Assembly: GCA_964392705.1 (NCBI GenBank)
Contig: CAYMQZ010000001.1
Coordinates: 8,155-72,154 of the forward strand
DNA from: an uncultured Gemmatimonadota bacterium
GTDB lineage: Bacteria; Gemmatimonadota; Gemmatimonadetes; Palauibacterales; Palauibacteraceae
Direction: 5' to 3'
Length of the DNA stretch: 64,000 bases
Shown here piece by piece: positions 13,276 to 61,722 of the stretch. The notes below the pieces were generated by a model that saw only the letters and a list, made by a program, of their open reading frames with translations, was not told where the DNA came from and made no database searches. The position numbers and the translations under genes were made by a program. The number at the start of each line of letters is the position of its first letter. Position 1 is the first letter of the stretch.

Positions 13276-13527
13276 ATGACGAAAACCTTCCGCGACGAGG
13301 CAGGCCGACGATGGAAGGCCTGGCTGGCGTCCCGCGACGTCTTCTGGCCGGATCCGGATGAGCCGGAGCCCGAGCCGGGATACGACGCGGTCCTCTTCGT
13401 CTGCTTTTCCGACCCGAAGGAGCCCCAGCGACGGGCGCGCGTGCCCAGTGGCTCGTTCGAGTCCCTGACCCTGGAAGACCTCAAGAAGCGCTTCCTGAGC
13501 GCGACGGCCGACCCCGCCATCCGCTGA
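13276..13527 (+). CDS. Hypothetical small protein (84 aa)
   Basis: ATG with a GAGG Shine-Dalgarno sequence 8 nt upstream. Clean ORF between plsC and pepA in a 0.8-kb otherwise non-coding stretch. I recognise no domain. Confidence 0.4.
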   Translation: MTKTFRDEAGRRWKAWLASRDVFWPDPDEPEPEPGYDAVLFVCFSDPKEPQRRARVPSGSFESLTLEDLKKRFLSATADPAIR

Positions 13528-13637
13528 GGAGGTGCGGCCGAGGCGGCGGGCCGCTGGACCGCTCGCGGCCGCGCGCGTCGTGAGGCGCGAGGGATGACCG
13601 GAACTCGAGGGCGGGCCGCTCGGCCCGCCCTTTCCAT

Positions 13638-15170
13638 ATGCCGCAGGACCCGAACCTCCGGACGGGAGAGCCGATGCGCCGGATCGAGGTGACCCGAGGG
13701 TCGCCGGAGGAGCTCGACGTGGACGTCGTGGCGGTCCCGGTGTCCCTGGGGGAGGAGACGCGGCTGGAGGGCGCGGGCGCGGTCGCCGACGCGCTCGTCG
13801 ACGGCGCCCTGGCTCGTCTGGCGCAGCGGAAGGCCTTCCGTGGCGAGGAGGGAGAGGCGCGCTGGCTGGTCCGCGCCTCGGGACCGGACGTGCTGGCAGT
13901 GGGTCTGGGTGAGGAGGGGGAGACGCCGGAGGGCGTGCGGCGGGCGGCCGGCGTGGGCGTCCGGGCCGCTCGCGAGGCCCGCGCCCGGTCCCTGGCGTTC
14001 CTCATGCCAGAGGCCGGAAGCGAAGGCTCGGCCGTCGAGATGTGGCAGGCCGCCGCCGAGGGCCTGGTCCTGGGCGACTGGAGATACGACGCCCTGCGGA
14101 GCGCGGAGGAGAGGGAGCGTCGGGCCCCGCCCCCCGAGCGAGCCCTGCTCGCGGCGGGCCGGGGCGCCGAGGGACCCTGGGAGGCGCGCCGGGAGGCGGC
14201 CGAGCGGGGACGCATCGTGGCCGAGGCCCAGAACGCGGCCCGGGAGCTGGTCACTTTGCCGGGAAACGTGGCCACCCCGCGCCGGCTGGCCGCGGCCGCG
14301 GAGGAGCTGGCAGCCGATCGCGGTCTGGCGGTCCAGGTCTGGGGCCCGGACGAGCTCCGGGAGCGCGGCTTCGGCGCGCTCCTCGCGGTGGCGCGCGGCT
14401 CGACCGAGGAGCCGCGCTTCATCATCCTGCAGCACGAAGGCGACGGGGGACGGCCCTGGTGCGTCGTGGGGAAGGGCGTCACCTTCGACAGCGGCGGGAT
14501 CTCGCTGAAGCCGGCCAGCGGCATGGAGGCCATGAAGTACGACATGGCCGGGGCCGCCGCCGTCCTCGGCATCCTGCACGCCGCTTCCCGGCTGGGACTG
14601 TCGCGCCGCGTGGTGGGCCTGATCCCGGCGACCGAGAACCTTCCCTCGGGCTCGGCGCTCAAGCCGGCCGACGTGATCCGGGGCGTGTCGGGGACGTCGA
14701 TCGAGGTGGTGAACACCGACGCCGAGGGTCGGCTCATCCTCTCCGACGCGCTGACCTACGCCTGCGGCCTGGATCCGGCGGCCGTGGTCGACCTGGCCAC
14801 CCTGACCGGAGGCTGCGTCGTGGCGCTGGGCCACCACGCGATCGGCATGATGAGCCCCGACGACGGGCTCGCGGCCGAGCTGGAGAGGGCGGGCGCCCGG
14901 AGCGGAGAGCGGGTCTGGCGGCTGCCGCTGTGGTCGGAATACCGGAAGCAGCTGGACAGCGACATCGCGGACATCAAGAACTCGGGGGGACGTGAGGCGA
15001 GTCCGATCACGGCGGGGCGGTTCCTCCAGGAGTTCGTGGGGGACGCCCGGTGGGCCCATCTGGACATCGCCGGAACGGCGTGGGCCGACGAGGAGAAGCG
15101 CTACCAGCCGAAGGGAGCGACCGGCGTCGGGGTGCGCCTCCTGGTCGACTGGCTCCGTCACGCCGACTGA
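13638..15170 (+). CDS. pepA: Leucyl aminopeptidase (M17)
   Basis: M17 signature NTDAEGRLILSDALTYA, VGKGVTFDSGGISLKP and VVGLIPATENLPSGSALKPADV. Confidence 0.92.
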   Translation: MPQDPNLRTGEPMRRIEVTRGSPEELDVDVVAVPVSLGEETRLEGAGAVADALVDGALARLAQRKAFRGEEGEARWLVRASGPDVLAVGLGEEGETPEGVRRAAGVGVRAAREARARSLAFLMPEAGSEGSAVEMWQAAAEGLVLGDWRYDALRSAEERERRAPPPERALLAAGRGAEGPWEARREAAERGRIVAEAQNAARELVTLPGNVATPRRLAAAAEELAADRGLAVQVWGPDELRERGFGALLAVARGSTEEPRFIILQHEGDGGRPWCVVGKGVTFDSGGISLKPASGMEAMKYDMAGAAAVLGILHAASRLGLSRRVVGLIPATENLPSGSALKPADVIRGVSGTSIEVVNTDAEGRLILSDALTYACGLDPAAVVDLATLTGGCVVALGHHAIGMMSPDDGLAAELERAGARSGERVWRLPLWSEYRKQLDSDIADIKNSGGREASPITAGRFLQEFVGDARWAHLDIAGTAWADEEKRYQPKGATGVGVRLLVDWLRHAD

Positions 15171-15174
15171 GCCC

Positions 15175-17007
15175 GTCCGCGGGCGCCGGCTGGCTCCCGT
15201 CGCGGCCGCGGGCCTGCTCGCCGCGGCGACGTTGCTCCCGCCGACCGGCGGGGCGGCCCAGGAGCTGCCGCCGGTGGACTCGCTGGCGGCCGTCGACACG
15301 ACCGGAGCCGCCCGGGACACGACGGAGCAGGCCCAGGAGCCTCGGCGCGTGCAGGCGTTCCCCGCTCGCCCGGCCCGCTCGCCCGGCGCCGCGCCGGAGT
15401 GGGAGTGCGACCGGGACTGTCTCCTGGCCAACCCGGACCTGACGCTCGTGGAGCTCCTGGAGCGGCACGTGCCGGGGGTGGTTCCCCTGCGCGGGGGGTA
15501 TTTCGGGGGTCCGCATCACCTGCTGCACGGGGCGTTCGGTCCCGGCTCCCTGCGATTGACGGTCGACGGTCGCGAGATCGCTCCGCTCGAGAGCGGACAG
15601 GTGGATCTGACCCGTATCTCGCTCGTCCAGCTCGATCGGGTCCGGATCGCGCGGCGCGCGGACGAGGTCTGGCTCGATCTCACCACCCACCGACACGACA
15701 GCCCGGTGGCCTACTCCCGGATCACGGCCGGAACCGGACAGCCGGGCGCCCAGATCCTCCGGGGCGTCTTCACGAACGGCCTGGGGCGCGACATCACGCT
15801 GGGCGGATGGGTCGACCTGCTGGACGTCGACGCGCCGGCGGGCAACAACGACCGGCTGGAGTTCCGGGGCCGAGCGAGCTGGATGCCGGGTACCGACCGG
15901 TTGGGCGTGCAGCTCGAATACGGGAATCAGGCGGTCTCTCGGGCCGCCGCCGATTCCGTGGAGTTCGCGCGGCGCGAGCTGCTGCTGCGGGGCCGGGCGG
16001 ATCTCTCGGAGGCCGTCCAGGCCGAGATCCGCCTGGCCACGAGCCGCTGGCGGGAGGACGCTCCGCCGGGAGCGGGCGACGAGGGGGACGAGGGCTCGGA
16101 CGACGGCGCGCGCACGGTGCGCGAGGCGGCCCTGGCGCTCCGCGCGGCGGCCGGAGACCTGGACGCGAGCGCCGAGGTGCGTTTCCTGGATGCGGCGTGG
16201 CAGCCCTCGGTCGCCGCGCGGGGCGAGGTCACGTGGCGCCCGCTCGCCCCTCTGACCCTGGACGCGGGTGCCGAGGCGGCTTCGTGGGAGGGCTTCGGCA
16301 GCTCCGAGGTGCGGGGCGGACTGCTCCTGGCTCCGGCGCTCCCGATCCCGCTTCGGCTCCGCGCGGATGCGGCGACCGGAACGCGGGGGATCCCGCGGCC
16401 GCTCACGGGCGGCGCCGAGAGCGTCTCCTTCGACGCGCTCGCCGCGGGCCTGGAGGCCGAGCTGGGCCCCTATCGGGTGCACGGGCGGGCCGGCTTCCAG
16501 AGTCTCGGACGTCGACTGCCCTTCGGGGACGCCTTCGATCGCGAGTTGACCCCGGGCCCGGAGCTGGAGGCTACGGGTCTGGAAGCGGGGATCGAGGGCC
16601 CGCTGCTTCCGGTGGGGCTCGTGGTCCCCGGTCTGGAGCCGGTTCGCCTGCGCGGATGGTGGCGGAGGGTCGAGCCGGAGATCGGCCAGCCTTTCTACCT
16701 GCCGGAAAACGTGCTGTATGGCCAGCTGGCCTTCCACGACAGCTTCTTCGAGGATGAGCTGGAGATCCGATTGGTCGCCCACGTGACGCGTCGTGACGCG
16801 GCGCTCTCGGCGCGGCCCGGCCAGACCGAGGCCGTGCCCCTGGCCGCCCACACCTGGGGAGGGGGACACTTCACCTTTCGCGTGGGCCACCTCCGGTTCT
16901 GGTACAAGACGCTGAACCCGGCCGGCCTGGACGCGCAGGAGGTTGCCGACGTCGCGTTTCCCGCCCGCGTAAACATCGTCGGTGTGCATTGGGAATTTCA
17001 TAATTGA
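15175..17007 (+). CDS. Outer-membrane protein with TonB-dependent-receptor plug-like domain; start codon unresolved
   Basis: Signal-peptide-like RGRRLAPVAAAGLLAAATLLPPTGGAAQE. Plug-like LVELLERHVPGVVPLRGGYFGG...LRLTVDGREIAPL...ISLVQLDRVRI. Beta-strand-rich C-terminus ending ...HWEFHN. There is no ATG, GTG or TTG between the pepA stop and the signal peptide. Confidence 0.5.
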   Translation, partial: VRGRRLAPVAAAGLLAAATLLPPTGGAAQELPPVDSLAAVDTTGAARDTTEQAQEPRRVQAFPARPARSPGAAPEWECDRDCLLANPDLTLVELLERHVPGVVPLRGGYFGGPHHLLHGAFGPGSLRLTVDGREIAPLESGQVDLTRISLVQLDRVRIARRADEVWLDLTTHRHDSPVAYSRITAGTGQPGAQILRGVFTNGLGRDITLGGWVDLLDVDAPAGNNDRLEFRGRASWMPGTDRLGVQLEYGNQAVSRAAADSVEFARRELLLRGRADLSEAVQAEIRLATSRWREDAPPGAGDEGDEGSDDGARTVREAALALRAAAGDLDASAEVRFLDAAWQPSVAARGEVTWRPLAPLTLDAGAEAASWEGFGSSEVRGGLLLAPALPIPLRLRADAATGTRGIPRPLTGGAESVSFDALAAGLEAELGPYRVHGRAGFQSLGRRLPFGDAFDRELTPGPELEATGLEAGIEGPLLPVGLVVPGLEPVRLRGWWRRVEPEIGQPFYLPENVLYGQLAFHDSFFEDELEIRLVAHVTRRDAALSARPGQTEAVPLAAHTWGGGHFTFRVGHLRFWYKTLNPAGLDAQEVADVAFPARVNIVGVHWEFHN

Positions 17008-18775: not shown

Positions 18776-18994
18776 ATGAAGGTCTTCACGCCGGATGAAG
18801 TCGCGAGCGCTGCGGGCAACAAGTATCTGGGAGTGCTCGTGACGGCGAAGTACGCGCGCGAGCTCAACGCGTTGCCGCTCGAGCGGTCGCCGTACGGAGC
18901 GGTCAAGCTCACCACGCTGGCGCTGCGGGCGCTCACGGATCCCGAGGGCGGGCTGGACTTCCGACTCGTGACGCATCGGGGCGCTTCGCCCTGA
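18776..18994 (+). CDS. rpoZ: DNA-directed RNA polymerase subunit omega
   Basis: NKYLGVLVTAKYARELN matches the omega-subunit core. 72 aa, between gmk and coaBC as in many bacteria. Confidence 0.88.
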   Translation: MKVFTPDEVASAAGNKYLGVLVTAKYARELNALPLERSPYGAVKLTTLALRALTDPEGGLDFRLVTHRGASP

Positions 18995-20184
18995 GGCCGT
19001 TCGACGGACGCCGCATCCTCCTGGTCGTCTCCGGGGGGATCGCGGCGTACAAGAGCGCCTATCTCGCCCGGCGGCTGATCGAAGCCGGCGCGACTGTTGA
19101 CGTCCTGCTGACGCGGGGCGCGCAGAAATTCATCGGAGAGGCCACCTTCGAGGGCCTTACCGGGCGCCCCGTCCACCTCGACCTGTGGGAGCGGCCGATG
19201 GCCCACCTCCAGCTCGGTCTGCGGGCCGACGTGGCGGTGGTCGCCCCGGCCACGGCGGACCTGCTGTCGCGGCTCGCCCGGGGGGCGGCCGACGACCTGG
19301 CTACGGCGGCGTTGCTGGCGGCGCCCTGCCCGGTGCTGCTCTGCCCGGCGATGAACCCGCGCATGTGGGAGCACCCGGCCACGCGCCGAAACGTGGAGCT
19401 GCTGAAGGGCTTCGGGCACCGCGTTCTCGGTCCGGCCCGCGGAGAGCTGGCGGAGGGCGAGACCGGGGTGGGTCGGATGGCGGAGCCGGAGGAGATCCGG
19501 GCCAGGCTGGGGCGGATCCTGGAGCCGCGGGGCCCGCTGCGGGGCCGGAGGGTGGTCGTGACGGCGGGCCCGACTCGGGCCCCGCTGGACCCGGTCCGTT
19601 ACGTCGGCAACCGTTCGTCGGGCCGGATGGGCTTCGCGCTGGCGGGCTCGGCCTGGCGCCGGGGCGCCGACGTCGTGCTCATCTCGGGGCCGTCCTCGGC
19701 CCCGCGTCCGGCGGGGCCGAGGACGGTCGAGGTGGAGACGTCGGAGGAGATGCTGACGGCGCTCCGCGAGGAGCTCGGCGCGGCGTCGGTGCTCCTGATG
19801 GCCGCGGCGGTCTCGGACTTCGAGGCAGAAAGGCCCCGGGACCGGAAGATCAAGAAGGAGGAGGCCGAGACCCTGGAGGTCGAGCTCCGGGCGGGTCCCG
19901 ACCTCCTGGAGGAGACGCTGGAGGCCCGTAGCGCGGCGGGCATCCTCACGGTCGGGTTCGCTCTCGAGACCGAGGATGCCCTGGAGAACGGCCGTCGCAA
20001 GCTGGAGCGCAAGGGCCTGGACTTCGTCGCCGTCAACGAGACGGGAGCGGACTCGGGCTTCGAGGCCGAGACGAACCGCGTCACCCTCCTGGACCGGTGG
20101 GGAAACGTGGAGGAGCTGCCGCTCCTTCGGAAGGAGGAGGTGGCCGACCGACTGCTGGACCGGGTGGAGGAACGGCTGGCCTGA
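18991..20184 (+). CDS. coaBC: Bifunctional phosphopantothenoylcysteine decarboxylase / phosphopantothenate-cysteine ligase; no canonical start codon found
   Basis: Flavoprotein N-terminus RILLVVSGGIAAYKSAYLARRL and ligase domain GPTRAPLDPVRYVGNRSSGRMG. The frame is open back to the rpoZ stop. The nearest candidate start is CTG at 18991, overlapping the rpoZ TGA. Confidence 0.8.
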   Translation: MRPFDGRRILLVVSGGIAAYKSAYLARRLIEAGATVDVLLTRGAQKFIGEATFEGLTGRPVHLDLWERPMAHLQLGLRADVAVVAPATADLLSRLARGAADDLATAALLAAPCPVLLCPAMNPRMWEHPATRRNVELLKGFGHRVLGPARGELAEGETGVGRMAEPEEIRARLGRILEPRGPLRGRRVVVTAGPTRAPLDPVRYVGNRSSGRMGFALAGSAWRRGADVVLISGPSSAPRPAGPRTVEVETSEEMLTALREELGAASVLLMAAAVSDFEAERPRDRKIKKEEAETLEVELRAGPDLLEETLEARSAAGILTVGFALETEDALENGRRKLERKGLDFVAVNETGADSGFEAETNRVTLLDRWGNVEELPLLRKEEVADRLLDRVEERLA

Positions 20185-22621: not shown

Positions 22622-23992
22622 GTGCCCTCCGTCGAGGTCCGCTTCGCCTGTACGGCCTGCAGCCGCGAGACGCTTCGCTGGGAGGGGCGCTGCCCCGGAT
22701 GCGGCGAGTGGAACTCCCTCGTCGAGGTGCGGCGCGAGACGGGAGGTACGCCCCTCCGCTCGCGGACCCCCGGACGGGCGGAAGCCGCGCCCCTGCCCCT
22801 CTCCGCCGCCGGAGACGGCACGCCCGAGCGGGCGGCGACGGGTCTCGGCGAGCTGGATCTCGTGCTGGGAGGCGGTCTCGTGCCGGGATCGCTGGTCCTG
22901 CTGGGGGGTCCCCCCGGTATCGGCAAGTCCACCCTGCTCCTGCAGCTGGCGGCCCGTCACCGGGCCGGCCGGGGGCGCGTCCTCTACGCCTCCGGGGAGG
23001 AGTCGGCCGAGCAGGTGCGCCTGCGGGCGAGGCGCCTCGGCGGAGGTGCCGAGGCCGTCCACTTCCTGGCCGAGACGGAGGTCGAGCGCCTCGTCGCGGC
23101 CGCCTCCCGGCTCGAGCCCACGCTGCTCTGCGTGGATTCGGTCCAGACGTTGCGGAGTCGCGAGCGGAGCTCGCCCCCCGGGACGGTGAACCAGGTACGG
23201 GAATGCGCCGCCGGCCTCCAGGGGTGGGCGAAGGCGGCCGGCACGGCGACCTTCCTGGTCGGGCACGTGACGAAGGGGGGCGCGCTGGCCGGGCCGCGCA
23301 CGCTGGAGCACCTGGTGGACGTCGTGCTCCATTTCGAGGGACCGAGCGGCTCGGCGCACCGTATCCTGCGAGCGACGAAGAACCGGTTCGGCGGCGTGGG
23401 CGAGGTGGCCGTGTTCCGCATGACGGAGGCGGGCCTCCTGCCCGTCCCGGATCCGGCCACCGCCTTCCTCGAGGGCCGGCGGCGCGGGGCGAGCGGCTCG
23501 GCGGTGGCCGTGCCCCTGGAGGGCTCCCGCCCGTTGCTGGCCGAGGTGCAGGCGCTGAGCGCTCCGAGCCGCGTGGCCTCGCCGCGGCGGATGACGACCG
23601 GCTTCCCGTCGCGACGGCTCTCGATGCTGTTGGCGGTGCTGGAGCGACGCGCCGGCCTGGCGCTGGGCGCGGCCGACGTGTTCGTGAACGTGGCGGGCGG
23701 GCTCCGGCTGGGCGACCCGGCCACGGATCTGGCCGTGGTGGCGGCCCTCGTCTCGGCGGAGCTCGACCGGCCGGTCCCGGGCGAGTTGGCCTTCATCGGC
23801 GAGGTGGGCCTCGGGGGCGAGGTGCGGGGCGCCGCCCAGATCGAGCGCCGGCTCCGGGAGGTGGCCCGCGGCGGGCTCGCCGGCGCCGTCCTGCCCCCGG
23901 GGACGGCCGTCGAGCTCGACGGCCTTCCCGCGCGCGAGGTGGAGCACGTGGGCGAGGTGGTGGCGCTGATCCGGCGAGGCCGGAGCCCGTGA
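22622..23992 (+). CDS. radA: DNA repair protein RadA/Sms
   Basis: N-terminal zinc finger CTACSRETLRWEGRCPGCGEW, Walker A GGPPGIGKSTLLLQ, KNRFG motif, and a Lon-like C-terminal domain. Confidence 0.92.
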   Translation: MPSVEVRFACTACSRETLRWEGRCPGCGEWNSLVEVRRETGGTPLRSRTPGRAEAAPLPLSAAGDGTPERAATGLGELDLVLGGGLVPGSLVLLGGPPGIGKSTLLLQLAARHRAGRGRVLYASGEESAEQVRLRARRLGGGAEAVHFLAETEVERLVAAASRLEPTLLCVDSVQTLRSRERSSPPGTVNQVRECAAGLQGWAKAAGTATFLVGHVTKGGALAGPRTLEHLVDVVLHFEGPSGSAHRILRATKNRFGGVGEVAVFRMTEAGLLPVPDPATAFLEGRRRGASGSAVAVPLEGSRPLLAEVQALSAPSRVASPRRMTTGFPSRRLSMLLAVLERRAGLALGAADVFVNVAGGLRLGDPATDLAVVAALVSAELDRPVPGELAFIGEVGLGGEVRGAAQIERRLREVARGGLAGAVLPPGTAVELDGLPAREVEHVGEVVALIRRGRSP

Positions 23993-24636: not shown

Positions 24637-25160
24637 GCGGCGACAAGGCGCGGAAGAAGGCGGCGGAGGGGCGACGAGCGGAGGGGACGCCGTACCGGAT
24701 CCTGTTCGTGTGCACCGGCAACACGTGCCGCAGCCCCATGGCGGAGGCGATCGGGCGCGCCGAGGCGGAGCGCCGGGGCCGGACCGAGGTGGAGGTCGGA
24801 TCGGCGGGCACCTTCGCGGTGGAGGGCGAGCCCGCTGCCGAGCCGGCCGAGATCGTGGTCCGGCGACACGGGCTGGACCTCGGTCCCCATCGGTCCCGAC
24901 CCCTGCTTCCGGACCTGGTGGCGAAGGCCGACCTGGTGCTCGGCATGACGCGCTCCCACGCGCAGATCGCGCGGGAGCTGGCCTCCGGAACCGACGTGAG
25001 GCTTCTCACCGCCTACCTGCCGGAAGGCCACGAGCGTCGGAACGCTCCCTTGCCCGATCCGGTGGGGGGGAGCCTGGACCAGTACGAGGAGACCTTCGAG
25101 GTGTTGCGCCAGGCGGTGGAGAGGCTGTTCGACACGCTGGAGGAGGAGAGGCGGGGTTGA
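24633..25160 (+). CDS. Low-molecular-weight protein-tyrosine phosphatase
   Basis: CX5R P-loop ILFVCTGNTCRSPMAEA and a DP motif. ATG overlaps the tsaC stop (ATGA). Confidence 0.85.
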   Translation: MSGDKARKKAAEGRRAEGTPYRILFVCTGNTCRSPMAEAIGRAEAERRGRTEVEVGSAGTFAVEGEPAAEPAEIVVRRHGLDLGPHRSRPLLPDLVAKADLVLGMTRSHAQIARELASGTDVRLLTAYLPEGHERRNAPLPDPVGGSLDQYEETFEVLRQAVERLFDTLEEERRG

Positions 25161-37478: not shown

Positions 37479-37715
37479 GTGACCTATGAAGAGAGGCTGA
37501 GGTACCGGGAGCTCATCGAGCGCACCGCCGGCCTGCGCGAGCGCCTGGAGGAGGGCGATGCATCGGCGCCGGTGACGCGGGAGGAGGGGCGGGAGCTGGC
37601 CGCCCTGGTCCAGGAGGCCCTCCTCAAGCTGAGCCCGGAGCGGTTCGATCGGATGATGGAGACGATCGTCCAGGAGGCCGCCCGCCGGGCGGGAACCGTC
37701 GCGTCGATGAAGTGA
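37479..37715 (+). CDS. Hypothetical small helical protein (78 aa)
   Basis: GTG start with GGGGGAAGGA upstream. Charged and helical. It is in the same frame as mdh, separated by a single TGA. Confidence 0.4.
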   Translation: MTYEERLRYRELIERTAGLRERLEEGDASAPVTREEGRELAALVQEALLKLSPERFDRMMETIVQEAARRAGTVASMK

Positions 37716-37739
37716 CGCCGTGAACGACGGGGAAGACCC

Positions 37740-38666
37740 ATAGACAAGATCACCGTCGTCGGCGCCGGGCACGTGGGCGCCACCGCCGCGCAACGGATCG
37801 CCGAGCGCGAGCTGGCGCGCCAGGTCGTGCTCGTCGACATCGTGGAGGGGATGCCCCAGGGGAAGGCGTTGGACCAGTGGGAGTCCGCTCCGGTCGAGGG
37901 TTTCGACACGCGAGTGACGGGTAGCCAGGGCTACGAGCCCACGGCCGGCTCGGGCCTCTACATCGTGACGGCGGGCCTGGCCAGGAAGCCGGGCATGAGC
38001 CGGGACGACCTGGTCTCCAGGAACGCCGAGATCATCGCGGGGATCTCGAGGGAGATCCGGAAGCACAGCCCCGAGGCCATCGTCGTGATGGTGACGAACC
38101 CGCTGGACGCGATGGCCTACGTGGCCAAGCGGGTGACCGGGTTCCCCCGCCGACGGGTGATCGGGATGGCCGGGGTGCTGGACACCGCCCGCTTCCGCAG
38201 CTTCATCGCGCTGGAGCTGGAGGTGAGCGTCGAGGACGTGCAGGCCCTGGTCCTGGGCGGGCACGGGGACAGCATGGTGCCGCTCGTGAGCACCGTGTCC
38301 GTGGGCGGGATCCCGCTCACCCAGCTTCTCCCCCCGGACCGCATCGAGGCGCTCGTGGAGCGGACCCGGAAGGGCGGAGGGGAGATCGTAAGCCTCCTGA
38401 AGGAGGGGAGCGCCTATTACGCGCCGTCGTCGGCGGTGGCCCAGATGGTCGAATCCATCGTTCGCGACAAGAAGCGGGTGCTTCCGTGCGCGGCCTGGCT
38501 CGAGGGCGAGTACGGCCTCCAGGGGCTCTTCCTCGGGGTCCCGTGCAAGCTCGGTCGGGAGGGGCTCGAGGCGGTCCTGGAAGTGGAGCTGTCGGAGGAC
38601 GAGCGGGCGGCACTCGAGCGCTCGGCGGCCGACGTGCGGGAGACGATGGAGAAGGTGTCCGTCTGA
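37740..38666 (+). CDS. mdh: Malate dehydrogenase (LDH-like, NAD-dependent); no canonical start codon found
   Basis: [32 protein letters not shown] and VTNPLD. The conserved N-terminus begins 8 codons after the TGA at 37713-37715. The only candidates are ATA at 37740 or ATC at 37749, with GGGGAAG 4 nt upstream. Confidence 0.82.
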
Positions 38667-38700
38667 GGACGCGCTCGCGTCCGCGGGCTCAGTGGACCAC

Positions 38701-40588: not shown

Positions 40589-42373
40589 TCACAGACGCGG
40601 CGGGGTCACCCCCTCCTGCTTCTGGTACTTCCCGCGCTTGTCGGCGTAGCTCACCTCGCACGGCTCGTCCGATTCGAAGAAGAGCACCTGGGCGATCCCC
40701 TCGTTCGCGTAGATCCTCGCCGGCAGGGGGGTCGTGTTGCTGATCTCCAGCGTCACGTATCCCTCCCATTCGGGCTCGAACGGGGTGACGTTGGTGATGA
40801 TCCCGCAGCGGGCATACGTTGAATTGTGGGCGAAGATTCCATTTGCCAGGAAGTTGTGTGCGCCGGGGACCGTGAGGTCGAAGACCTCCTCCTCGCCCGC
40901 GGGCTCGATGGAGCGCACGGCATCCCACAAAGGGCCGCCGCCGTCCGTGAGCGCTTCCAGCTCCTCATCCTCCGTGATCGCCGCCACCGCCGAAGCTGCC
41001 GCGTACGGCACCGACTGCGCGGGCTGAGTGCCTCGGACCCCCATGCTGCGGAGACTCCTGCCATGCTCGCGCGCGCCGCGCCGGAGCAGCTCCCAGCCCT
41101 CGCGCGGCAGCGTGTGGAAGTTCGACTTCCGCCGCGGACGAGCGCGCAGCGCGGGCAATCGCTCTTCGAGTCGATCCTGCTTTTCGGATCCGGGCCAAAA
41201 GCCGATCCGTTCCGCGAAGCGAAGCACCTGACGCCGATCCGTGATCTGGAGGCGAAAGGCCCGCGTCTTCGCCCGGGTGCGGCGCTCGCGAATGAGCGAC
41301 ACGATGCCGTAGCGCAGGAGGAGGTGGTGGACGTCCTCGATCAGACGCCGGGACTTGGAATAGTACTCGAGGAAAACCCCCTCGCCCGTGTAGAACGACC
41401 CGTCGCAGGAAAAGAGCGCGCGCAGGAAGCGCCTCACCGACGGCTCCGGTGCCGTGAAGACCGCCTGCGGGACGTGCTTCGCTCCCGCGCCGACGCACAG
41501 TCCATGGCTCGCCAGCCATCGGCTGCATGCGTTGCGTTCCATGGTCCCTCCGCGCCCGCGCCTGTTCACGATACGGTAGCCGTATGTTCCCTTGGGGGAG
41601 ACTTCCGCTCCGATCCCCACGACCGACTCCTCGAGTAGCCGCACGAGGACCGGGTCCGCCGAGGTGAACGTGGGGCTGTGGCCCGGCGCCTTGCACTGGC
41701 CCTCGGAGATCATGAGCCCGAGCAGGGCGGCCTCCCAGGCGGGAAGCGTCGTCCGGCCGAACACCGGTACCTCGCGCGCGACCGCGATCCGGTCGCCGGG
41801 CCGCAGGCTCTCGAGCGCCGTCCAGCCGTCGAGCTTGCGGAAGGGGTGGTTGGCCGTGGCGCGAACCTTGAGTCCGAGGCGCGTCGTCAGTTCGAAGACG
41901 GGCTTCCGGCCCTGCGGCAGGAACCGGCTCACCGGAAGCTCGCCTCCGCGCCAGCCGTCCAGACCGAACGTGCGGGCGCCCCCGGCAAACTCCGCGATCG
42001 GCAGATAGGCCCCGGTGTCGGCATCCACGACGCGCGTGTCTCCGGCGACGCACTTGCCCACGCAGATCGTGAGCACGTTCCGGGGGATGCGGAAGTACTC
42101 CACCGAGCGCGCCAGCGCGAAGGAGTTGGGCGGGATGATGCAGGTGTCGGACTGGACCTCGATGAAGGAGCGCTCGTCGAACGCCTTCGGGTCCACCACC
42201 TGCGAGAGGGCGTTGTGGAAGATCCGGAACTCGTCGGCCACGCGCATGTCGTAGCCGTAGCTGCTGAGCCCGTACGAGATGGCCCCTTCGCGGACCCCCC
42301 GGTCGGCGAACGGCTCGATCATCCCTCGTTCGGTCGCCATCCGGCGGATCCAGCGGTCGCTCTTGATCGTCAT
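40589..42373 (-). CDS. dcd: dCTP deaminase interrupted by an intein (extein 184 aa plus intein 410 aa)
   Basis: Exteins [11 protein letters not shown]...DMRVADEF...NVLTICVGK / [49 protein letters not shown] match Dcd across the KSS-AR-G motif. An ORF between them starts Cys and ends His-Asn followed by Ser. ATG at 42373 overlaps the hydrolase stop (ATGA). Confidence 0.85.
40823..42052 (-). mobile_element. Intein with LAGLIDADG-type homing endonuclease domain inside dcd
   Basis: N-terminal splice junction K|CVAGDTRVV; C-terminal junction FAHN|S. Two LAGLIDADG-like blocks ([24 protein letters not shown]). Flanking exteins rejoin to a canonical ...VGKSTYARCG... Dcd motif. Codon positions checked: TGC at 42052-42050, AAT at 40825-40823. 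Confidence 0.8.
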
Positions 42374-43233
42374 CGGACGGTTCTCCGGTCCTCTCTCCCC
42401 GGGGGGATCCTTCGGCCTTCGATCGCTCTCGCCACCTCGACCACGGCGCGCGCCACCACCTCCGGGGCCTCCTCCGGCACGACGTGGCCGGCGGCCGGAA
42501 GCGCCGCGAACTCGAATCCCAGTCGACCCGCCAGTCGGGCCGGGCCCCGAAGCCCGATGCGACGATCCCGCGCGCCTCCCACGACCCGGCCGACCAGGGG
42601 CCGCGCCGGGAGGTGACGCTCCAGCGCGCTCGGCTCCCAGTCGGCCAGGACGCGGAGGAGCAGGCGCGCCCGGTCGGGGTCGGCGTACGGCCCCGCGTAG
42701 CGGTCGACATCCGCACGGGACGGCGCGCGTCCGGACCCGTAGGTGCGTCGAAGGATATAGGCCGCGAGGGGACGGCGCAGGGGTACGAGCGCGCTGGCGG
42801 TCAGGAGACGGACGGGGCGGGCCCGCAGCAGGTGGAGGATCGACGGACGCCGGGTCCAGGGATGCACGGGGTTCAGCAGCACGAGGCCCTCGACCCGGGT
42901 GTCGGCCGCCGCCAGGGCGAGGGCCAGCGCGGCTCCGTGGGAATGTCCGACGACCAGACGGGGGACGAAGCGGAGCGCCTCCAGAACGGATCCGAGGCGT
43001 GCCAGCTCGTGCTCCAGGCCGTGGGGGAGGTCGGGTCGGGGCTCCGATTCGCCGCGTCCGGGCAGGTCCGGCAGGCACAGCTCGAACCGTCCCTCGAGCC
43101 GGGGGACCAGGGCGTCCCAGGTTCGACGGTTCGCGCTCAACCCGTGCAGGAGCAGGAGGGGGACCCCCCGACCGCGGCGCTCGACCCGCACCCGGCCCCC
43201 CGACGTCGCCACGTCGCTCGTTGTCGCAGCCAT
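42370..43233 (-). CDS. Alpha/beta-hydrolase fold protein
   Basis: HG oxyanion motif [10 protein letters not shown] and nucleophile elbow VGHSHGAAL. Start ATG at 43233, or 43275. Confidence 0.75.
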
Positions 43234-58138: not shown

Positions 58139-59511
58139 AGGTACGGCCGGAGATCTTTCGGGAATACGACGTGCGCGGGATCGTGGGCGACGCGCTGACG
58201 CCCGAGGTGGCGCGCGCCGTGGCCCGCGCGTACGGGAGCGGACTGGCCGACCGCGAGCGGCCGCTGGTGGCCGTGGGCCACGACAACCGTCCCAGCTCGC
58301 CGGACCTGGGGGCCGCCGTCTGCCGGGGGCTGAACGAGGCCGGAGTGCGGGCGGCGCTCGTGGGCACGGTGCCCACGCCCGTCCTCTATTTCGCCGCCCG
58401 GGACCTCTCGGCCGACGGGGGGATCCAGGTGACCGGGTCCCACAACCCGCCGGAGTACAACGGGATCAAGATGGTCCGGGACGGGCGCGCCATCTACGGC
58501 GAGGAGATCCAGGGACTCCGCGCCCGGATCGAGGCGGACGCCTACGCCTCGGGGAGCGCCGGCACGGAGCGGGTGGAGATCCTGGACCGATACGTGGAGA
58601 GCTTCGCCGAGCGGGCTCGCGTCGCCGCTCCCGTGCGCCTGGTCCTGGACTGCGGCAACGGGGCCGGCAGCGTCGTCGCGGTCCGGGCGCTCGAGGCGGC
58701 CGGCCTCGAGGTGGACCCCCTCTACTGCGAGTCCGACGGGACCTTCCCGAACCATCACCCGGATCCGACGGTGGACGAGAACGTGCAGGACCTGATCGTC
58801 CGGGTGCGGGAGACGGGCGCGCGGCTCGGCGTCGGGCTGGACGGCGACGCGGACCGCATCGGCGCCGTGACCGGCGAGGGCGAAATCGTCCGGGGCGACC
58901 ACCTGCTCCTGCTGTTCGCGATCGACCTGCTTCGGGAGCGACCGGGAGCGAAGGTCGTCTTCGACGTGAAGTGCTCCCAGGCGCTTCCCGAGGTGATCGA
59001 GGCCCGGGGCGGAGAGCCGATCCTCTGGAAGACCGGCCACTCGCTGATCAAGGAGAAGATGGCGGAGGTCGGCGCTCCACTGGCGGGTGAGATGAGTGGA
59101 CACATCTGCTTTGCGGACAGATACTTCGGGTTCGACGACGCTATCTACGCGGCGGCCCGGCTCGCCGACCTGGTGGCCAAGAGCGGCCGAAGCCTGGGCG
59201 ACCTCGCGAGAGAGATCCCGAGCTACCCGTCCACCCCGGAGCTGCGGGTGGACTGCCCCGAGGATCGGAAGTTCGACGTGGTCCGGCAGGCGGTCGAGCA
59301 TTACCGGCGCTCCCACGACGTGATCGACATCGACGGGGCGCGGGTGCGCTTCGAGGGAGGATGGGCGCTGATCCGGGCCAGCAACACGCAGCCGGTCATC
59401 GTGGTACGGGTCGAGGCGGAGGACCGGGAGCGCCTGGCTGAGATCCATGGCGAGGTGGGAGCCTGGCTGGCCGACCGGGGGGTCGCGCTGCCGCCGCTGG
59501 AGGGAGCCTGA
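58135..59511 (+). CDS. Phosphomannomutase/phosphoglucomutase (alpha-D-phosphohexomutase)
   Basis: Active-site TGSHNPPEYNG, metal loop GLDGDADR and GEMSGH. ATG overlaps the nuoN stop (ATGA), with CAGGAGG upstream. Confidence 0.88.
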   Translation: MKVRPEIFREYDVRGIVGDALTPEVARAVARAYGSGLADRERPLVAVGHDNRPSSPDLGAAVCRGLNEAGVRAALVGTVPTPVLYFAARDLSADGGIQVTGSHNPPEYNGIKMVRDGRAIYGEEIQGLRARIEADAYASGSAGTERVEILDRYVESFAERARVAAPVRLVLDCGNGAGSVVAVRALEAAGLEVDPLYCESDGTFPNHHPDPTVDENVQDLIVRVRETGARLGVGLDGDADRIGAVTGEGEIVRGDHLLLLFAIDLLRERPGAKVVFDVKCSQALPEVIEARGGEPILWKTGHSLIKEKMAEVGAPLAGEMSGHICFADRYFGFDDAIYAAARLADLVAKSGRSLGDLAREIPSYPSTPELRVDCPEDRKFDVVRQAVEHYRRSHDVIDIDGARVRFEGGWALIRASNTQPVIVVRVEAEDRERLAEIHGEVGAWLADRGVALPPLEGA

Positions 59512-59558
59512 GCCCCTCGGGGGAGGGGCGCGAGGCGGGGGAGGCGGGGACCGCGGTC

Positions 59559-60482
59559 GTGGCAATCGGCGGGAACGCGCTCTCCCCCGCCGGCGAGCCC
59601 GCGACGATCGCCAACCAGTTCCGGCACACGCGGGAGAGCCTGGTTTCGGTGGTCGACCTCGCCCGCCGGGGCTGGAAGCTGGCGGTGGTCCACGGCAACG
59701 GCCCGCAGGTGGGAGACGAGCTGCTGCGCAACGAGCGGGCGCGAGGAGCGCTGCCGGAGATGCCGCTCGGCGTGCTCGTCGCCGCCACCGCGGGATGGAT
59801 CGGCTACATGATCCAGCAGTCGCTGCAGAACGCCCTGGGGCGGGCCGGGGTTCGCCGGGGCGTGGTCAGCGTGATCACGCAGGTGCGGGTCGATCCGGAC
59901 GATCCGCGGACGCGCGAGCCCCGGAAGTTCATCGGCCGGCCGCTGGACCCCGACGTGGCGGAGCTGCTGCGGGGGGACGGGATCCCCGTGGAGGCGGACG
60001 ACGAGGGGCGGCTCAGGCGTCGGGTGCCGAGCCCGGAGCCGCTGGAAGTCGTCGAGGGCCCGGTGGTGGCGGGCCTGGTGGCGGACGGCCAGGTCGTGGT
60101 AGCGGCCGGCGGCGGCGGGATCCCCGCGTATCGGCACCCGGTGCTCGGCCTGGAGGGCGTGGACGCCGTCGTGGACAAGGATCTCGCCGCCGCGCTGCTG
60201 GCGCGGGAGATCGGCGCCGGCCTCCTGCTCATCCTCACGGACGTGGAGGCGGTCTACCGCGACTACGGGACGCCACAGGCGCGGCCGATCGCCCGCCTGA
60301 CGGCGGAGGAGGCCCGCCGGCTGGCACGGGACGGACAGCTCGGCGTGGGCTCGATGGAGCCCAAGGTGCGGGCGGCCGTGGAGTTCGTGGAGCGCGCCGG
60401 CGGCCGTGCGGTGATCGCGGCGCTCGAGGACGCCGGGCGGGCGGCGACGGGCGAGGTGGGGACCACGATCGTCCGGGCGTGA
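59559..60482 (+). CDS. arcC: Carbamate kinase
   Basis: AIGGNAL...VVHGNGPQVG...GGGGIP, amino-acid kinase family. GTG start. Confidence 0.85.
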   Translation: MAIGGNALSPAGEPATIANQFRHTRESLVSVVDLARRGWKLAVVHGNGPQVGDELLRNERARGALPEMPLGVLVAATAGWIGYMIQQSLQNALGRAGVRRGVVSVITQVRVDPDDPRTREPRKFIGRPLDPDVAELLRGDGIPVEADDEGRLRRRVPSPEPLEVVEGPVVAGLVADGQVVVAAGGGGIPAYRHPVLGLEGVDAVVDKDLAAALLAREIGAGLLLILTDVEAVYRDYGTPQARPIARLTAEEARRLARDGQLGVGSMEPKVRAAVEFVERAGGRAVIAALEDAGRAATGEVGTTIVRA

Positions 60483-60585: not shown

Positions 60586-61722
60586 ATGAACGTGCACGAG
60601 TACCAGGCGCGGGACATCTTCCGGGCGCACGGCATCCCGGTCCCGCCGGGGGAGGTGGCGACGACGCCCGAGGAGGCGGAACGGATCGCCGCGGCCCAGG
60701 GAGGCGGGGTGGTGGTGAAGGCCCAGGTCCACGCCGGCGGTCGTGGCAAGGCCGGCGGCGTCAAGCTGGCCGACGAGCCGCGCGAAGCCCGCGCCGCCGC
60801 GAAGACGATCCTGGGCATGCGGATCAAGGGCCTCACCGTCCGTCGCGTGCTCGTGGCGCCCGCCGTGGAGATCGAGCGCGAGGCGTACGTGGGGATCGTC
60901 ATGGACCGGAGCTCGGGGGCGGACATCGTGATGGTCTCCCCCGAGGGGGGCATGGACATCGAGGAGGTCGCGGCCACGAAGCCGGAGGCGATCCACCGCC
61001 GGACAGTCGACCCTCGCTACGGGCTCCTCACCCATCAGGCGATGGGGCTGGCTTACCGGCTGTACGACGACCGGGAGCTGGCCGGGCAGGCGTCCGAGCT
61101 CATCCAGGACCTCTACGCCGCGTACCGGGACTCGGGCGCCACCCTGGCGGAGATCAACCCGCTGGTCGTCACGCCCGAGGGCGCGCTGCTGGCGATCGAC
61201 GCGAAGCTGAACATCGACGACAACGCCCTGTTCCGGCTGCCGGAGATCGCCGAGCTGCGCGATGAAGAGGCGGAGGCCGCCTCCGAGCGGAAGGCCCGGG
61301 AGGCCGGGCTGAGCTATGTGAAGCTCGAGGGCGACGTGGGCTGCTGCGTGAACGGCGCGGGTCTCGCGATGGCCACGATGGACCTCATCAAGTACTACGG
61401 CGGCGACCCCGCCAACTTCCTCGACATCGGCGGCTCCTCCAGCCCGGACAAGGTGGTGGCCGCGCTCGAGATCATCACGGCCGACCCGAACGTCCGCTCC
61501 ATCCTGTTCAACATCTTCGGGGGAATCACGCGCTGCGACGACGTGGCGAACGGGATCGTGGAGGCGACGAAGCGGATCGAGCTGGACGTTCCGGTCACGA
61601 TCCGGCTGACGGGAACGAACGAGGAGGAGGCGGTCGAGATTCTCGAAGCGCACGGGTACGAGGCGATGGTGGACATGGACGAGGCCGTTCGGACGGCGGT
61701 CGAGCGCGCGGGGCGGGCATGA
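60586..61722 (+). CDS. sucC: Succinyl-CoA synthetase beta subunit
   Basis: [12 protein letters not shown]...[21 protein letters not shown]-grasp domain and [13 protein letters not shown] ligase-CoA domain. Confidence 0.95.

Follow-up and report, generated by a model that had tools for sequence, protein, structure and literature searches.

A probable ATA start codon in the malate dehydrogenase gene, and candidate near-cognate starts of other genes, in an uncultured Gemmatimonadota bacterium

Results

The mdh locus and its annotated start

The malate dehydrogenase (MDH) gene mdh, whose start codon is the subject of this work, lies in a 64-kb stretch of DNA from an uncultured Gemmatimonadota bacterium (contig CAYMQZ010000001.1 of assembly GCA_964392705.1), which is called the window in the following. 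The G+C content across the window is 72%, and the best MDH matches of the window protein carry Gemmatimonadota names. The genes are arranged in the order moaD-moaE-moaA-small open reading frame (ORF)-mdh (Table 1). A preliminary description of the sequence had reported that mdh is in frame with a 78-amino-acid (aa) ORF across a single TGA and has no canonical start, and this layout proved right in every detail. The frame after the TGA at 37713-37715 reads CGC CGT GAA CGA CGG GGA AGA CCC ATA(37740) GAC AAG ATC(37749) ACC GTC GTC GGC GCC GGG CAC GTG(37773). No in-frame ATG, GTG or TTG is read in the sequence from this TGA up to GTG 37773. A run of 19 codons without a start codon is not rare by chance; the missing start is of note because homology puts the conserved N-terminus ahead of the earliest canonical start codon.

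The mdh ORF is intact, and its product is 85% identical to orthologues of 308 aa. The protein matches the Pfam families PF00056 and PF02866 and scores 467.5 bits against TIGR01763, for which the cut-off is 351.85. Residues 3-304, counted from the ATA codon, correspond to positions 3-303 of the 305 positions of this profile. In the translation, the substrate-discriminating position of the loop G-x-x-R-K-P-G-M-S-R is occupied by Arg and not by Gln, which in the lactate dehydrogenase (LDH)/MDH family is taken as a marker of malate-type specificity.

In the public annotation a 297-aa MDH starting at GTG 37773 is given (P0001), and the gene calls on four further contigs of the same species (L109-L112) make the identical choice. 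This start is almost certainly wrong, because the codon sits within the GAGHVG motif. The first beta-strand and the GxGxxG glycines belong to the Rossmann dinucleotide-binding fold. The product starting at GTG 37773 is devoid of this first strand and of two of the glycines, and the protein contains the N-terminal beta-strand and GxGxxG only when its translation begins no later than 37749.

Table 1. Coordinates, in the window, of the elements of the mdh locus and of other genes with non-canonical or candidate non-canonical starts.
Feature	Coordinates	Strand	Remarks
mdh coding sequence, LDH-like NAD-dependent malate dehydrogenase	37740..38666	+	308 aa + stop
ATA, proposed mdh initiation codon	37740..37742	+	in the start register of the orthologues
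Untranslated spacer, 24 nt	37716..37739	+	holds the purine-rich Shine-Dalgarno-like GGGGAAG at 37729-37735
Genuine stop codon of the small ORF (TGA, followed by C)	37713..37715	+	same alignment position as the family end (TGA/TAG in relatives)
Small ORF, separate gene directly upstream of mdh	37479..37715	+	78 aa, GTG start, TGA stop
GTG chosen by public annotation and gene callers	37773..37775	+	V of GAGHVG
Seven-codon mini-ORF in the +1 frame	37720..37743	+	GTG AAC GAC GGG GAA GAC CCA TAG, read from the sequence
coaBC	18991..20184	+	putative start CTG 18991, overlaps the rpoZ stop TGA 18992-18994 as CTGA
Carbamate kinase gene (arcC)	59508..60482	+	probable start CTG 59508, overlaps the phosphoglucomutase/phosphomannomutase stop TGA 59509-59511 as CTGA
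Exported plug-like protein, N-terminal region	15160..15232	+	no usable canonical start; candidates ACG 15160 and CTG 15190

Start position in the orthologues

The 120 best MDH homologues are 79-85% identical to the window protein, apart from the self-match, and are mostly 306-312 aa long. About 115 of these 120 begin with M/V/L-[DE]-[KR]-ITVVGAG, with the initiator aligned to ATA 37740. The preliminary description had offered a non-canonical initiation codon, either ATA 37740 or ATC 37749, as one explanation of the layout, had pointed to the start context of mdh in the closest relatives, and had considered that the conserved enzyme might start further downstream in the orthologues. At the DNA level, the codon found at the position of the ATA in 19 loci of the close clade is GTG in 17 and TTG in two, and it is ATG in the syntenic relative GCA_046757485.1. 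L001 and L002, whose mdh is closest to that of the window and whose spacers are similarly short, are the ones that start with TTG, a codon that is already a weak start. As a broad control, 80 more distant mdh loci from many phyla with at most 73% identity were collected in a contig scan, and in all 80 a canonical start precedes the ATA position by 0-4 codons. A start downstream of KITVVGAG was found in none of the 99 relatives read at the DNA level. These results bear out the option of non-canonical initiation, and by the register of the orthologues specifically at ATA 37740 rather than at ATC 37749.

Two further features of the sequence agree with this register: position 1 of TIGR01763 corresponds to ATA 37740, and the coding signal of mdh begins at 37743. 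As a sense codon, ATA occurs only twice among the 13,062 codons of the window (0.15 per 1000). Given this rarity, an internal isoleucine codon would not be expected to appear as ATA precisely where the orthologues start. Three homologues that had appeared to be further cases of non-canonical mdh starts (P0009, P0015 and P0099) were rejected: in two of them a TTG had been missed by the gene caller, and the third lies at a contig end. We consider it likely that mdh is functional and is translated from the near-cognate codon ATA 37740, read as Met, into a normal enzyme of 308 aa.

The small upstream gene and possible read-through of its stop

In each of the 19 close-clade loci that extend into mdh (L001, L002 and L085-L101), and also in L106/L107, mdh is immediately preceded by a homologue of the small ORF, 78-80 aa in length. 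The in-frame G+C content at third codon positions (GC3) of the small ORF is 0.93-0.97. Its product matches about 14 short clusters of 48-129 aa among 1.84 billion representatives, and its predicted structure consists of three helices with a predicted local distance difference test (pLDDT) score of 74. No Pfam, NCBIfam or meaningful fold match was obtained for the small protein. Its conservation and composition show that the small ORF is a genuine gene in its own right. The clade-restricted family (L001, L002, L084-L101, L106 and L107) is always found between moaA and mdh and shares the conserved pattern MTYEER...SPERWDR...EAARR.

The separation of the two genes bears on the possibility that TGA 37713 is read through, by a near-cognate tRNA-Trp at TGA-C or by other recoding, so that a fusion of about 395 aa is the main product. 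The preliminary description had listed such a fusion among its explanations. Apart from the TGA, no stop interrupts the frame shared by the two ORFs, the base after the TGA is C, and L001 and L002 are likewise in frame; termination is considered weak in a TGA-C context, and a single in-frame TGA between two coding regions is also what is seen in UGA read-through and selenocysteine recoding. In contrast to such systems, the frame is not conserved. Among the 19 relatives, the small ORF lies in frames 0, 1 and 2 relative to mdh in 8, 6 and 5 cases, the spacer measures 24-169 nt and often contains in-frame stops, and the small ORF ends with TGA or TAG, the latter in six loci. The small ORF of L106 is out of frame with mdh as well. 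Since frame, stop and spacer vary in this way, the in-frame layout in the window is a coincidence of the short spacer.

The spacer itself also lacks a coding signature. Genes of the window have a GC3 of 0.915; that of the spacer is 3/8, for which P=2e-4 under coding composition, and the rare codons AGA, CGA, CGT, GGA and GAA occur in it. Read-through would furthermore have to place ATA, so rarely used as a sense codon, exactly at the orthologous start. No fused homologue is present among the 120 best MDH matches or among the matches of the small ORF, and an Rfam scan of the window gave no match at all, neither to a selenocysteine insertion sequence nor to another recoding RNA. TGA is the terminator of 29 of the 36 window genes. 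The fusion as the main product is thus not supported, and we regard it as very unlikely. Low-level read-through may occur at TGA-C; on no indication is it the selected route.

A promoter scan revealed no sigma-70-like site within the small ORF. In L090-L101, conserved blocks (...ggttgcgg...ccggtagctt... and ttccaacctgaagaacggacggttcatcGTG) are found in a long spacer between the small ORF and mdh, about 165 nt upstream of mdh. These blocks may represent a dedicated mdh promoter and leader which was lost in the organism of the window.

Possible initiation at another site

If translation did not start at ATA 37740, it could start at ATC 37749, giving a protein that begins M-TVVGAG, or at the annotated GTG 37773, giving a shortened protein. 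ATC is a near-cognate codon too and is only three codons downstream of ATA, and GTG 37773 is the codon that gene callers pick. Every relative, however, retains at least M-x-K/R ahead of ITVVGAG, and the coding signal is present from 37743. For GTG 37773, the loss of beta-strand 1 and of two GxGxxG glycines is joined by a Shine-Dalgarno (SD) score upstream of the codon of only -3.0. Taken together, a start at either of these sites is quite improbable.

Agreement among strains and selection on mdh

Contigs of the same species were recovered by means of the exact 78-aa small protein. Four were obtained (L109-L112), which originate from the runs DRR815011, SRR32548264, SRR32548263 and SRR12687321. 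Over 0.9-2.0 kb, their identity to the window is 99.4-100%, with zero indels. All five assemblies, that is the window and the four contigs, are identical over the 91 bases 37700-37790, which include the TGA, GGGGAAGACCC and the ATA, and they differ at 0-11 sites outside this segment. An additional same-species contig of 8.6 kb (L108) is 99.85% identical to the window with 13 mismatches and no gaps. ATA 37740 is a fixed feature of the species.

Ten sites in mdh are variable among the strains. Eight of the changes are synonymous, and the remaining two are conservative (A>S and A>V). The ratio of nonsynonymous to synonymous polymorphism within the species (pN/pS) is 0.088, and the probability of at least 8 synonymous changes out of 10 under neutrality is P=5.6e-4. 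The low pN/pS shows that purifying selection has acted on mdh in the presence of the ATA and that the gene is not decaying into a pseudogene. This is of importance for the view that the ATA is a start-loss allele on the way to a pseudogene and that the work is done by another enzyme, for instance a malate:quinone oxidoreductase or a second MDH. Such a view could draw on the weakness of ATA as a start in E. coli and on the weak SD sequence. It has to face an intact ORF that is 85% identical to its orthologues, strong purifying selection within the species with ATA fixed in five of five assemblies, and two other housekeeping genes whose similar starts are conserved across lineages (see below). 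We consider a start-loss allele very improbable.

A sequencing or assembly error, which the preliminary description had considered for the TGA, is refuted by the four further independent assemblies: although a single G to A change would account for ATA in place of ATG, and one added G in GGGG or one added C in CCC would bring GTG 37720 into frame, the base-for-base agreement without indels over 37700-37790 in all five assemblies excludes a homopolymer misregister of the +1-frame GTG 37720, L108 has no gap over its whole 8.6 kb, and the 8-residue N-terminal extension that would result occurs in no relative, so that an error of either kind is extremely improbable.

Proposed initiation at ATA

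Judging from the sequence, we propose that mdh is initiated as follows. The formylmethionine initiator tRNA would read ATA 37740 as Met. The purine-rich GGGGAAG, which ends 4 nt upstream of the ATA, would aid initiation; a comparable purine-rich block precedes the mdh start in the relatives L001 and L002. Ribosomes that finish the small ORF, if it is co-transcribed, may help to load the ATA site, as the stop of the small ORF lies 24 nt upstream.

Several points weigh against efficient or exclusive initiation at ATA. The pairing of GGGGAAG has an energy of -5.7 kcal/mol, compared with means of -8.1 kcal/mol for 30 canonical starts of the window and -5.0 kcal/mol for random 20-mers; all these values were obtained with a generic anti-SD sequence, which may not be the 3′ end of the host's 16S rRNA. 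Under this generic model, the ATA is not compensated by a strong SD sequence. In E. coli, initiation from AUA and CUG amounts to 1-2% of that from AUG (bioRxiv 10.1101/063800). By analogy, if the host behaved like E. coli, the ATA would give about 1-2% of the output of ATG, which is low for an enzyme of the tricarboxylic acid cycle. This implies either a low rate of MDH synthesis per mRNA or a laxer discrimination of start codons in the lineage. The mdh ATA has been seen in this species only and shows no deeper conservation. ATC 37749 is an alternative near-cognate candidate, and the TGA-C context together with the in-frame layout would permit some read-through product.

The mini-ORF listed in Table 1 begins 4 nt after the stop of the small ORF, and its TAG (37741-43) overlaps the ATA as ATAG, a geometry like that of ATGA and CTGA. 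It is not conserved in L001 and L002, and the SD score of its GTG 37720 is weak (-3.3). The mini-ORF could, speculatively, serve as a reinitiation relay, or it may be a coincidence.

Probable near-cognate starts of coaBC and arcC

The coaBC gene is another gene of the window with a conserved N-terminus (RRILLVVSGGIAAYK from 19009) upstream of its first canonical start, ATG 19198. Among the coaBC homologues, 115 of 120 begin with MRPFDGRR, and the window codons at this place are CTG AGG CCG TTC GAC GGA CGC CGC. The first canonical codon is found 69 codons downstream of the CTG. In the closest coaBC relatives, L102 and L103 (83% and 80% identity), which come from other samples, the gene is likewise called short and the same CTGA junction is present, and the same-species contig L108 is identical to the window at the coaBC start. 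TIGR00521 covers CoaBC from residue 5. In the public annotation CoaBC is cut to 328 aa and has lost most of the N-terminal flavoprotein (decarboxylase) domain. Homology and junction conservation place the start of coaBC at CTG 18991.

A similar arrangement was found for the carbamate kinase gene arcC. Its coding signal starts at 59508, and the Pfam and NCBIfam profiles of carbamate kinase begin upstream of the annotated GTG 59559. The relatives L113 and L114 have a CTGA junction in frame with arcC as well, and the stretch from the junction to the annotated GTG comprises 17, 20 and 8 codons in the three sequences. Most carbamate kinase homologues have 8-12 residues ahead of IGGNA. The annotated GTG cuts the enzyme to 307 aa and trims its first beta-strand. 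It is probable that carbamate kinase starts at CTG 59508.

In coaBC and arcC the start overlaps the upstream stop, and this overlap is kept in L102, L103, L113 and L114; the stop upstream of mdh, by contrast, is 24 nt away. The CTGA overlap of both CTG codons fits a coupling of termination and reinitiation. Among the genes of the window, 4-nt overlaps of stop and start take the form of ATGA at 61719, GTGA at 23989 and 52771, TTGA at 25157 and CTGA at 18991 and 59508.

The plug-like protein and the start survey

The exported plug-like protein matches Pfam Plug with only 20.3 bits, which is below the cut-off. Its signal peptide RGRRLAPVAAAGLLAAATLLPPTGGAAQ begins just past the pepA stop at 15168-70. 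The canonical options are GTG 14992, 59 codons upstream with a 179-nt overlap with pepA, and TTG 15232, which falls within the signal peptide's hydrophobic core. Gene callers start the protein at GTG 15274, after the signal peptide, and a relative has a GTG start ahead of the signal peptide. The region is identical in L108.

The starts of 37 genes were compared with those of the syntenic relative GCA_046757485.1 (L104/L106, 38 kb), and about a dozen more genes were compared with full-length profiles. In nearly all of them, ATG, GTG or TTG occupies the aligned start position or one adjacent to it; the exceptions are coaBC, arcC and the gene of the plug-like protein. HD-GYP, gmk, moaD, moaE, aroE, nuoB and nuoL were examined as candidates for non-canonical starts and rejected, as all have canonical options. 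Read in this way, the window contains near-cognate starts at an unusual local density, about 3-4 in about 50 genes. The preliminary description had stated that coaBC and the plug-domain protein also are without a canonical start and had suspected a wider property rather than a local error. The claim for coaBC is confirmed by the conserved N-terminus ahead of ATG 19198, that for the plug-like protein holds in substance, with only GTG 14992 or TTG 15232 available, and the wider property is supported within the window by the CTG of coaBC, the probable CTG of arcC and one further candidate case.

The ATA of mdh would then be part of a local tolerance for near-cognate starts in housekeeping genes. 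A more general reading, which we offer tentatively and hold to be possible but doubtful, is that the lineage has a relaxed discrimination of start codons. A few percent of its genes, including essential ones, would start at CTG, ATA and perhaps ACG, particularly at sites that overlap an upstream stop or lie shortly after one, in an NUGA-type reinitiation for which the first base is irrelevant.

Discussion

The near-cognate codons AUA, AUU, AUC and CUG are included in translation table 11. The codons described here resemble the known near-cognate starts in that they differ by one base from AUG and sit where orthologues have ATG, GTG or TTG, and in that they belong to conserved housekeeping genes in which they are overlooked by gene callers, resulting in a shortened annotation. 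In Deinococcus, the near-cognate starts ATC of dnaA, CTG of rpsL and ATA of infC have been identified by N-terminal proteomics (PMC2830850). As in Deinococcus, several near-cognate genes occur within one high-GC lineage; the starts in the window are predicted from the sequence. The window differs from the known cases in the genes concerned (mdh, coaBC and arcC) and in the phylum, Gemmatimonadota, and no autoregulatory logic such as that of infC (AUU/AUA) is obvious for the window genes. The density of 3-4 in about 50 genes is also far higher than in the usual annotation. A literature search combining Gemmatimonadetes with non-canonical start codons returned nothing relevant.

Termination-reinitiation at 4-nt overlaps such as ATGA is well described (PMC6728339, PMC12548453). 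The putative starts of coaBC and arcC share with this coupling the 4-nt geometry and the overlap with an upstream TGA. Unlike in the described ATGA coupling, the overlap is CTGA, and for mdh coupling is only possible, because the upstream stop is 24 nt away. Near-cognate overlaps such as CTGA are not mentioned in PMC6728339 or PMC12548453, as judged by a term search. Near-cognate starts as such are already known; unusual here are the genes concerned, their local density and the conserved CTGA junctions.

The public annotation and the gene callers shorten at least three housekeeping enzymes, MDH, CoaBC and carbamate kinase. Metabolic reconstructions or structure predictions that are built on these shortened models would be wrong. 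The mdh gene would provide a clean natural case of an ATA start that is fixed in a species in a gene under strong purifying selection. The two CTG starts, conserved across related lineages at stop/start overlaps, may inform on the stringency of start codon selection outside the model bacteria. Should near-cognate starts be as frequent in the whole genome as in the window (about 6-8% of the genes checked), the lineage would constitute a natural system for the study of relaxed initiation fidelity and start-codon-independent reinitiation. Relaxed discrimination, if true, would point to a lineage-specific change in IF3, initiator tRNA or 16S rRNA, and current annotations would contain hundreds of shortened or missed proteins per genome.

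Other features of the window

The segment 23,990-26,736 had appeared to be a single frameshifted gene, as would be a sign of an error-prone assembly. This was rejected, since the segment actually contains four genes: a yrdC-like gene, a low-molecular-weight phosphatase gene, aroE and a comF-like gene. No tRNA was found in a tRNA scan of the window. In the syntenic relative, a citrate synthase gene lies between an 83-aa gene and pepA (L104 3241-4380, corresponding to 13276-13674 of the window), and mdh is separated from the HD-GYP gene by a gene of 334 aa (L106 11053-12057, corresponding to 38667-38700 of the window). With tblastn (E <= 1e-5), neither of these two genes was matched in any part of the window. 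On the minus strand at 40589-42375, an intein of about 410 aa splits the gene of dCTP deaminase, which starts at ATG 42373. A LAGLIDADG homing-endonuclease domain is part of this intein, and the Pfam families matched are DCD, Intein_splicing and LAGLIDADG_3. The dCTP deaminase orthologue of the syntenic relative is intein-free and consists of 184 aa.

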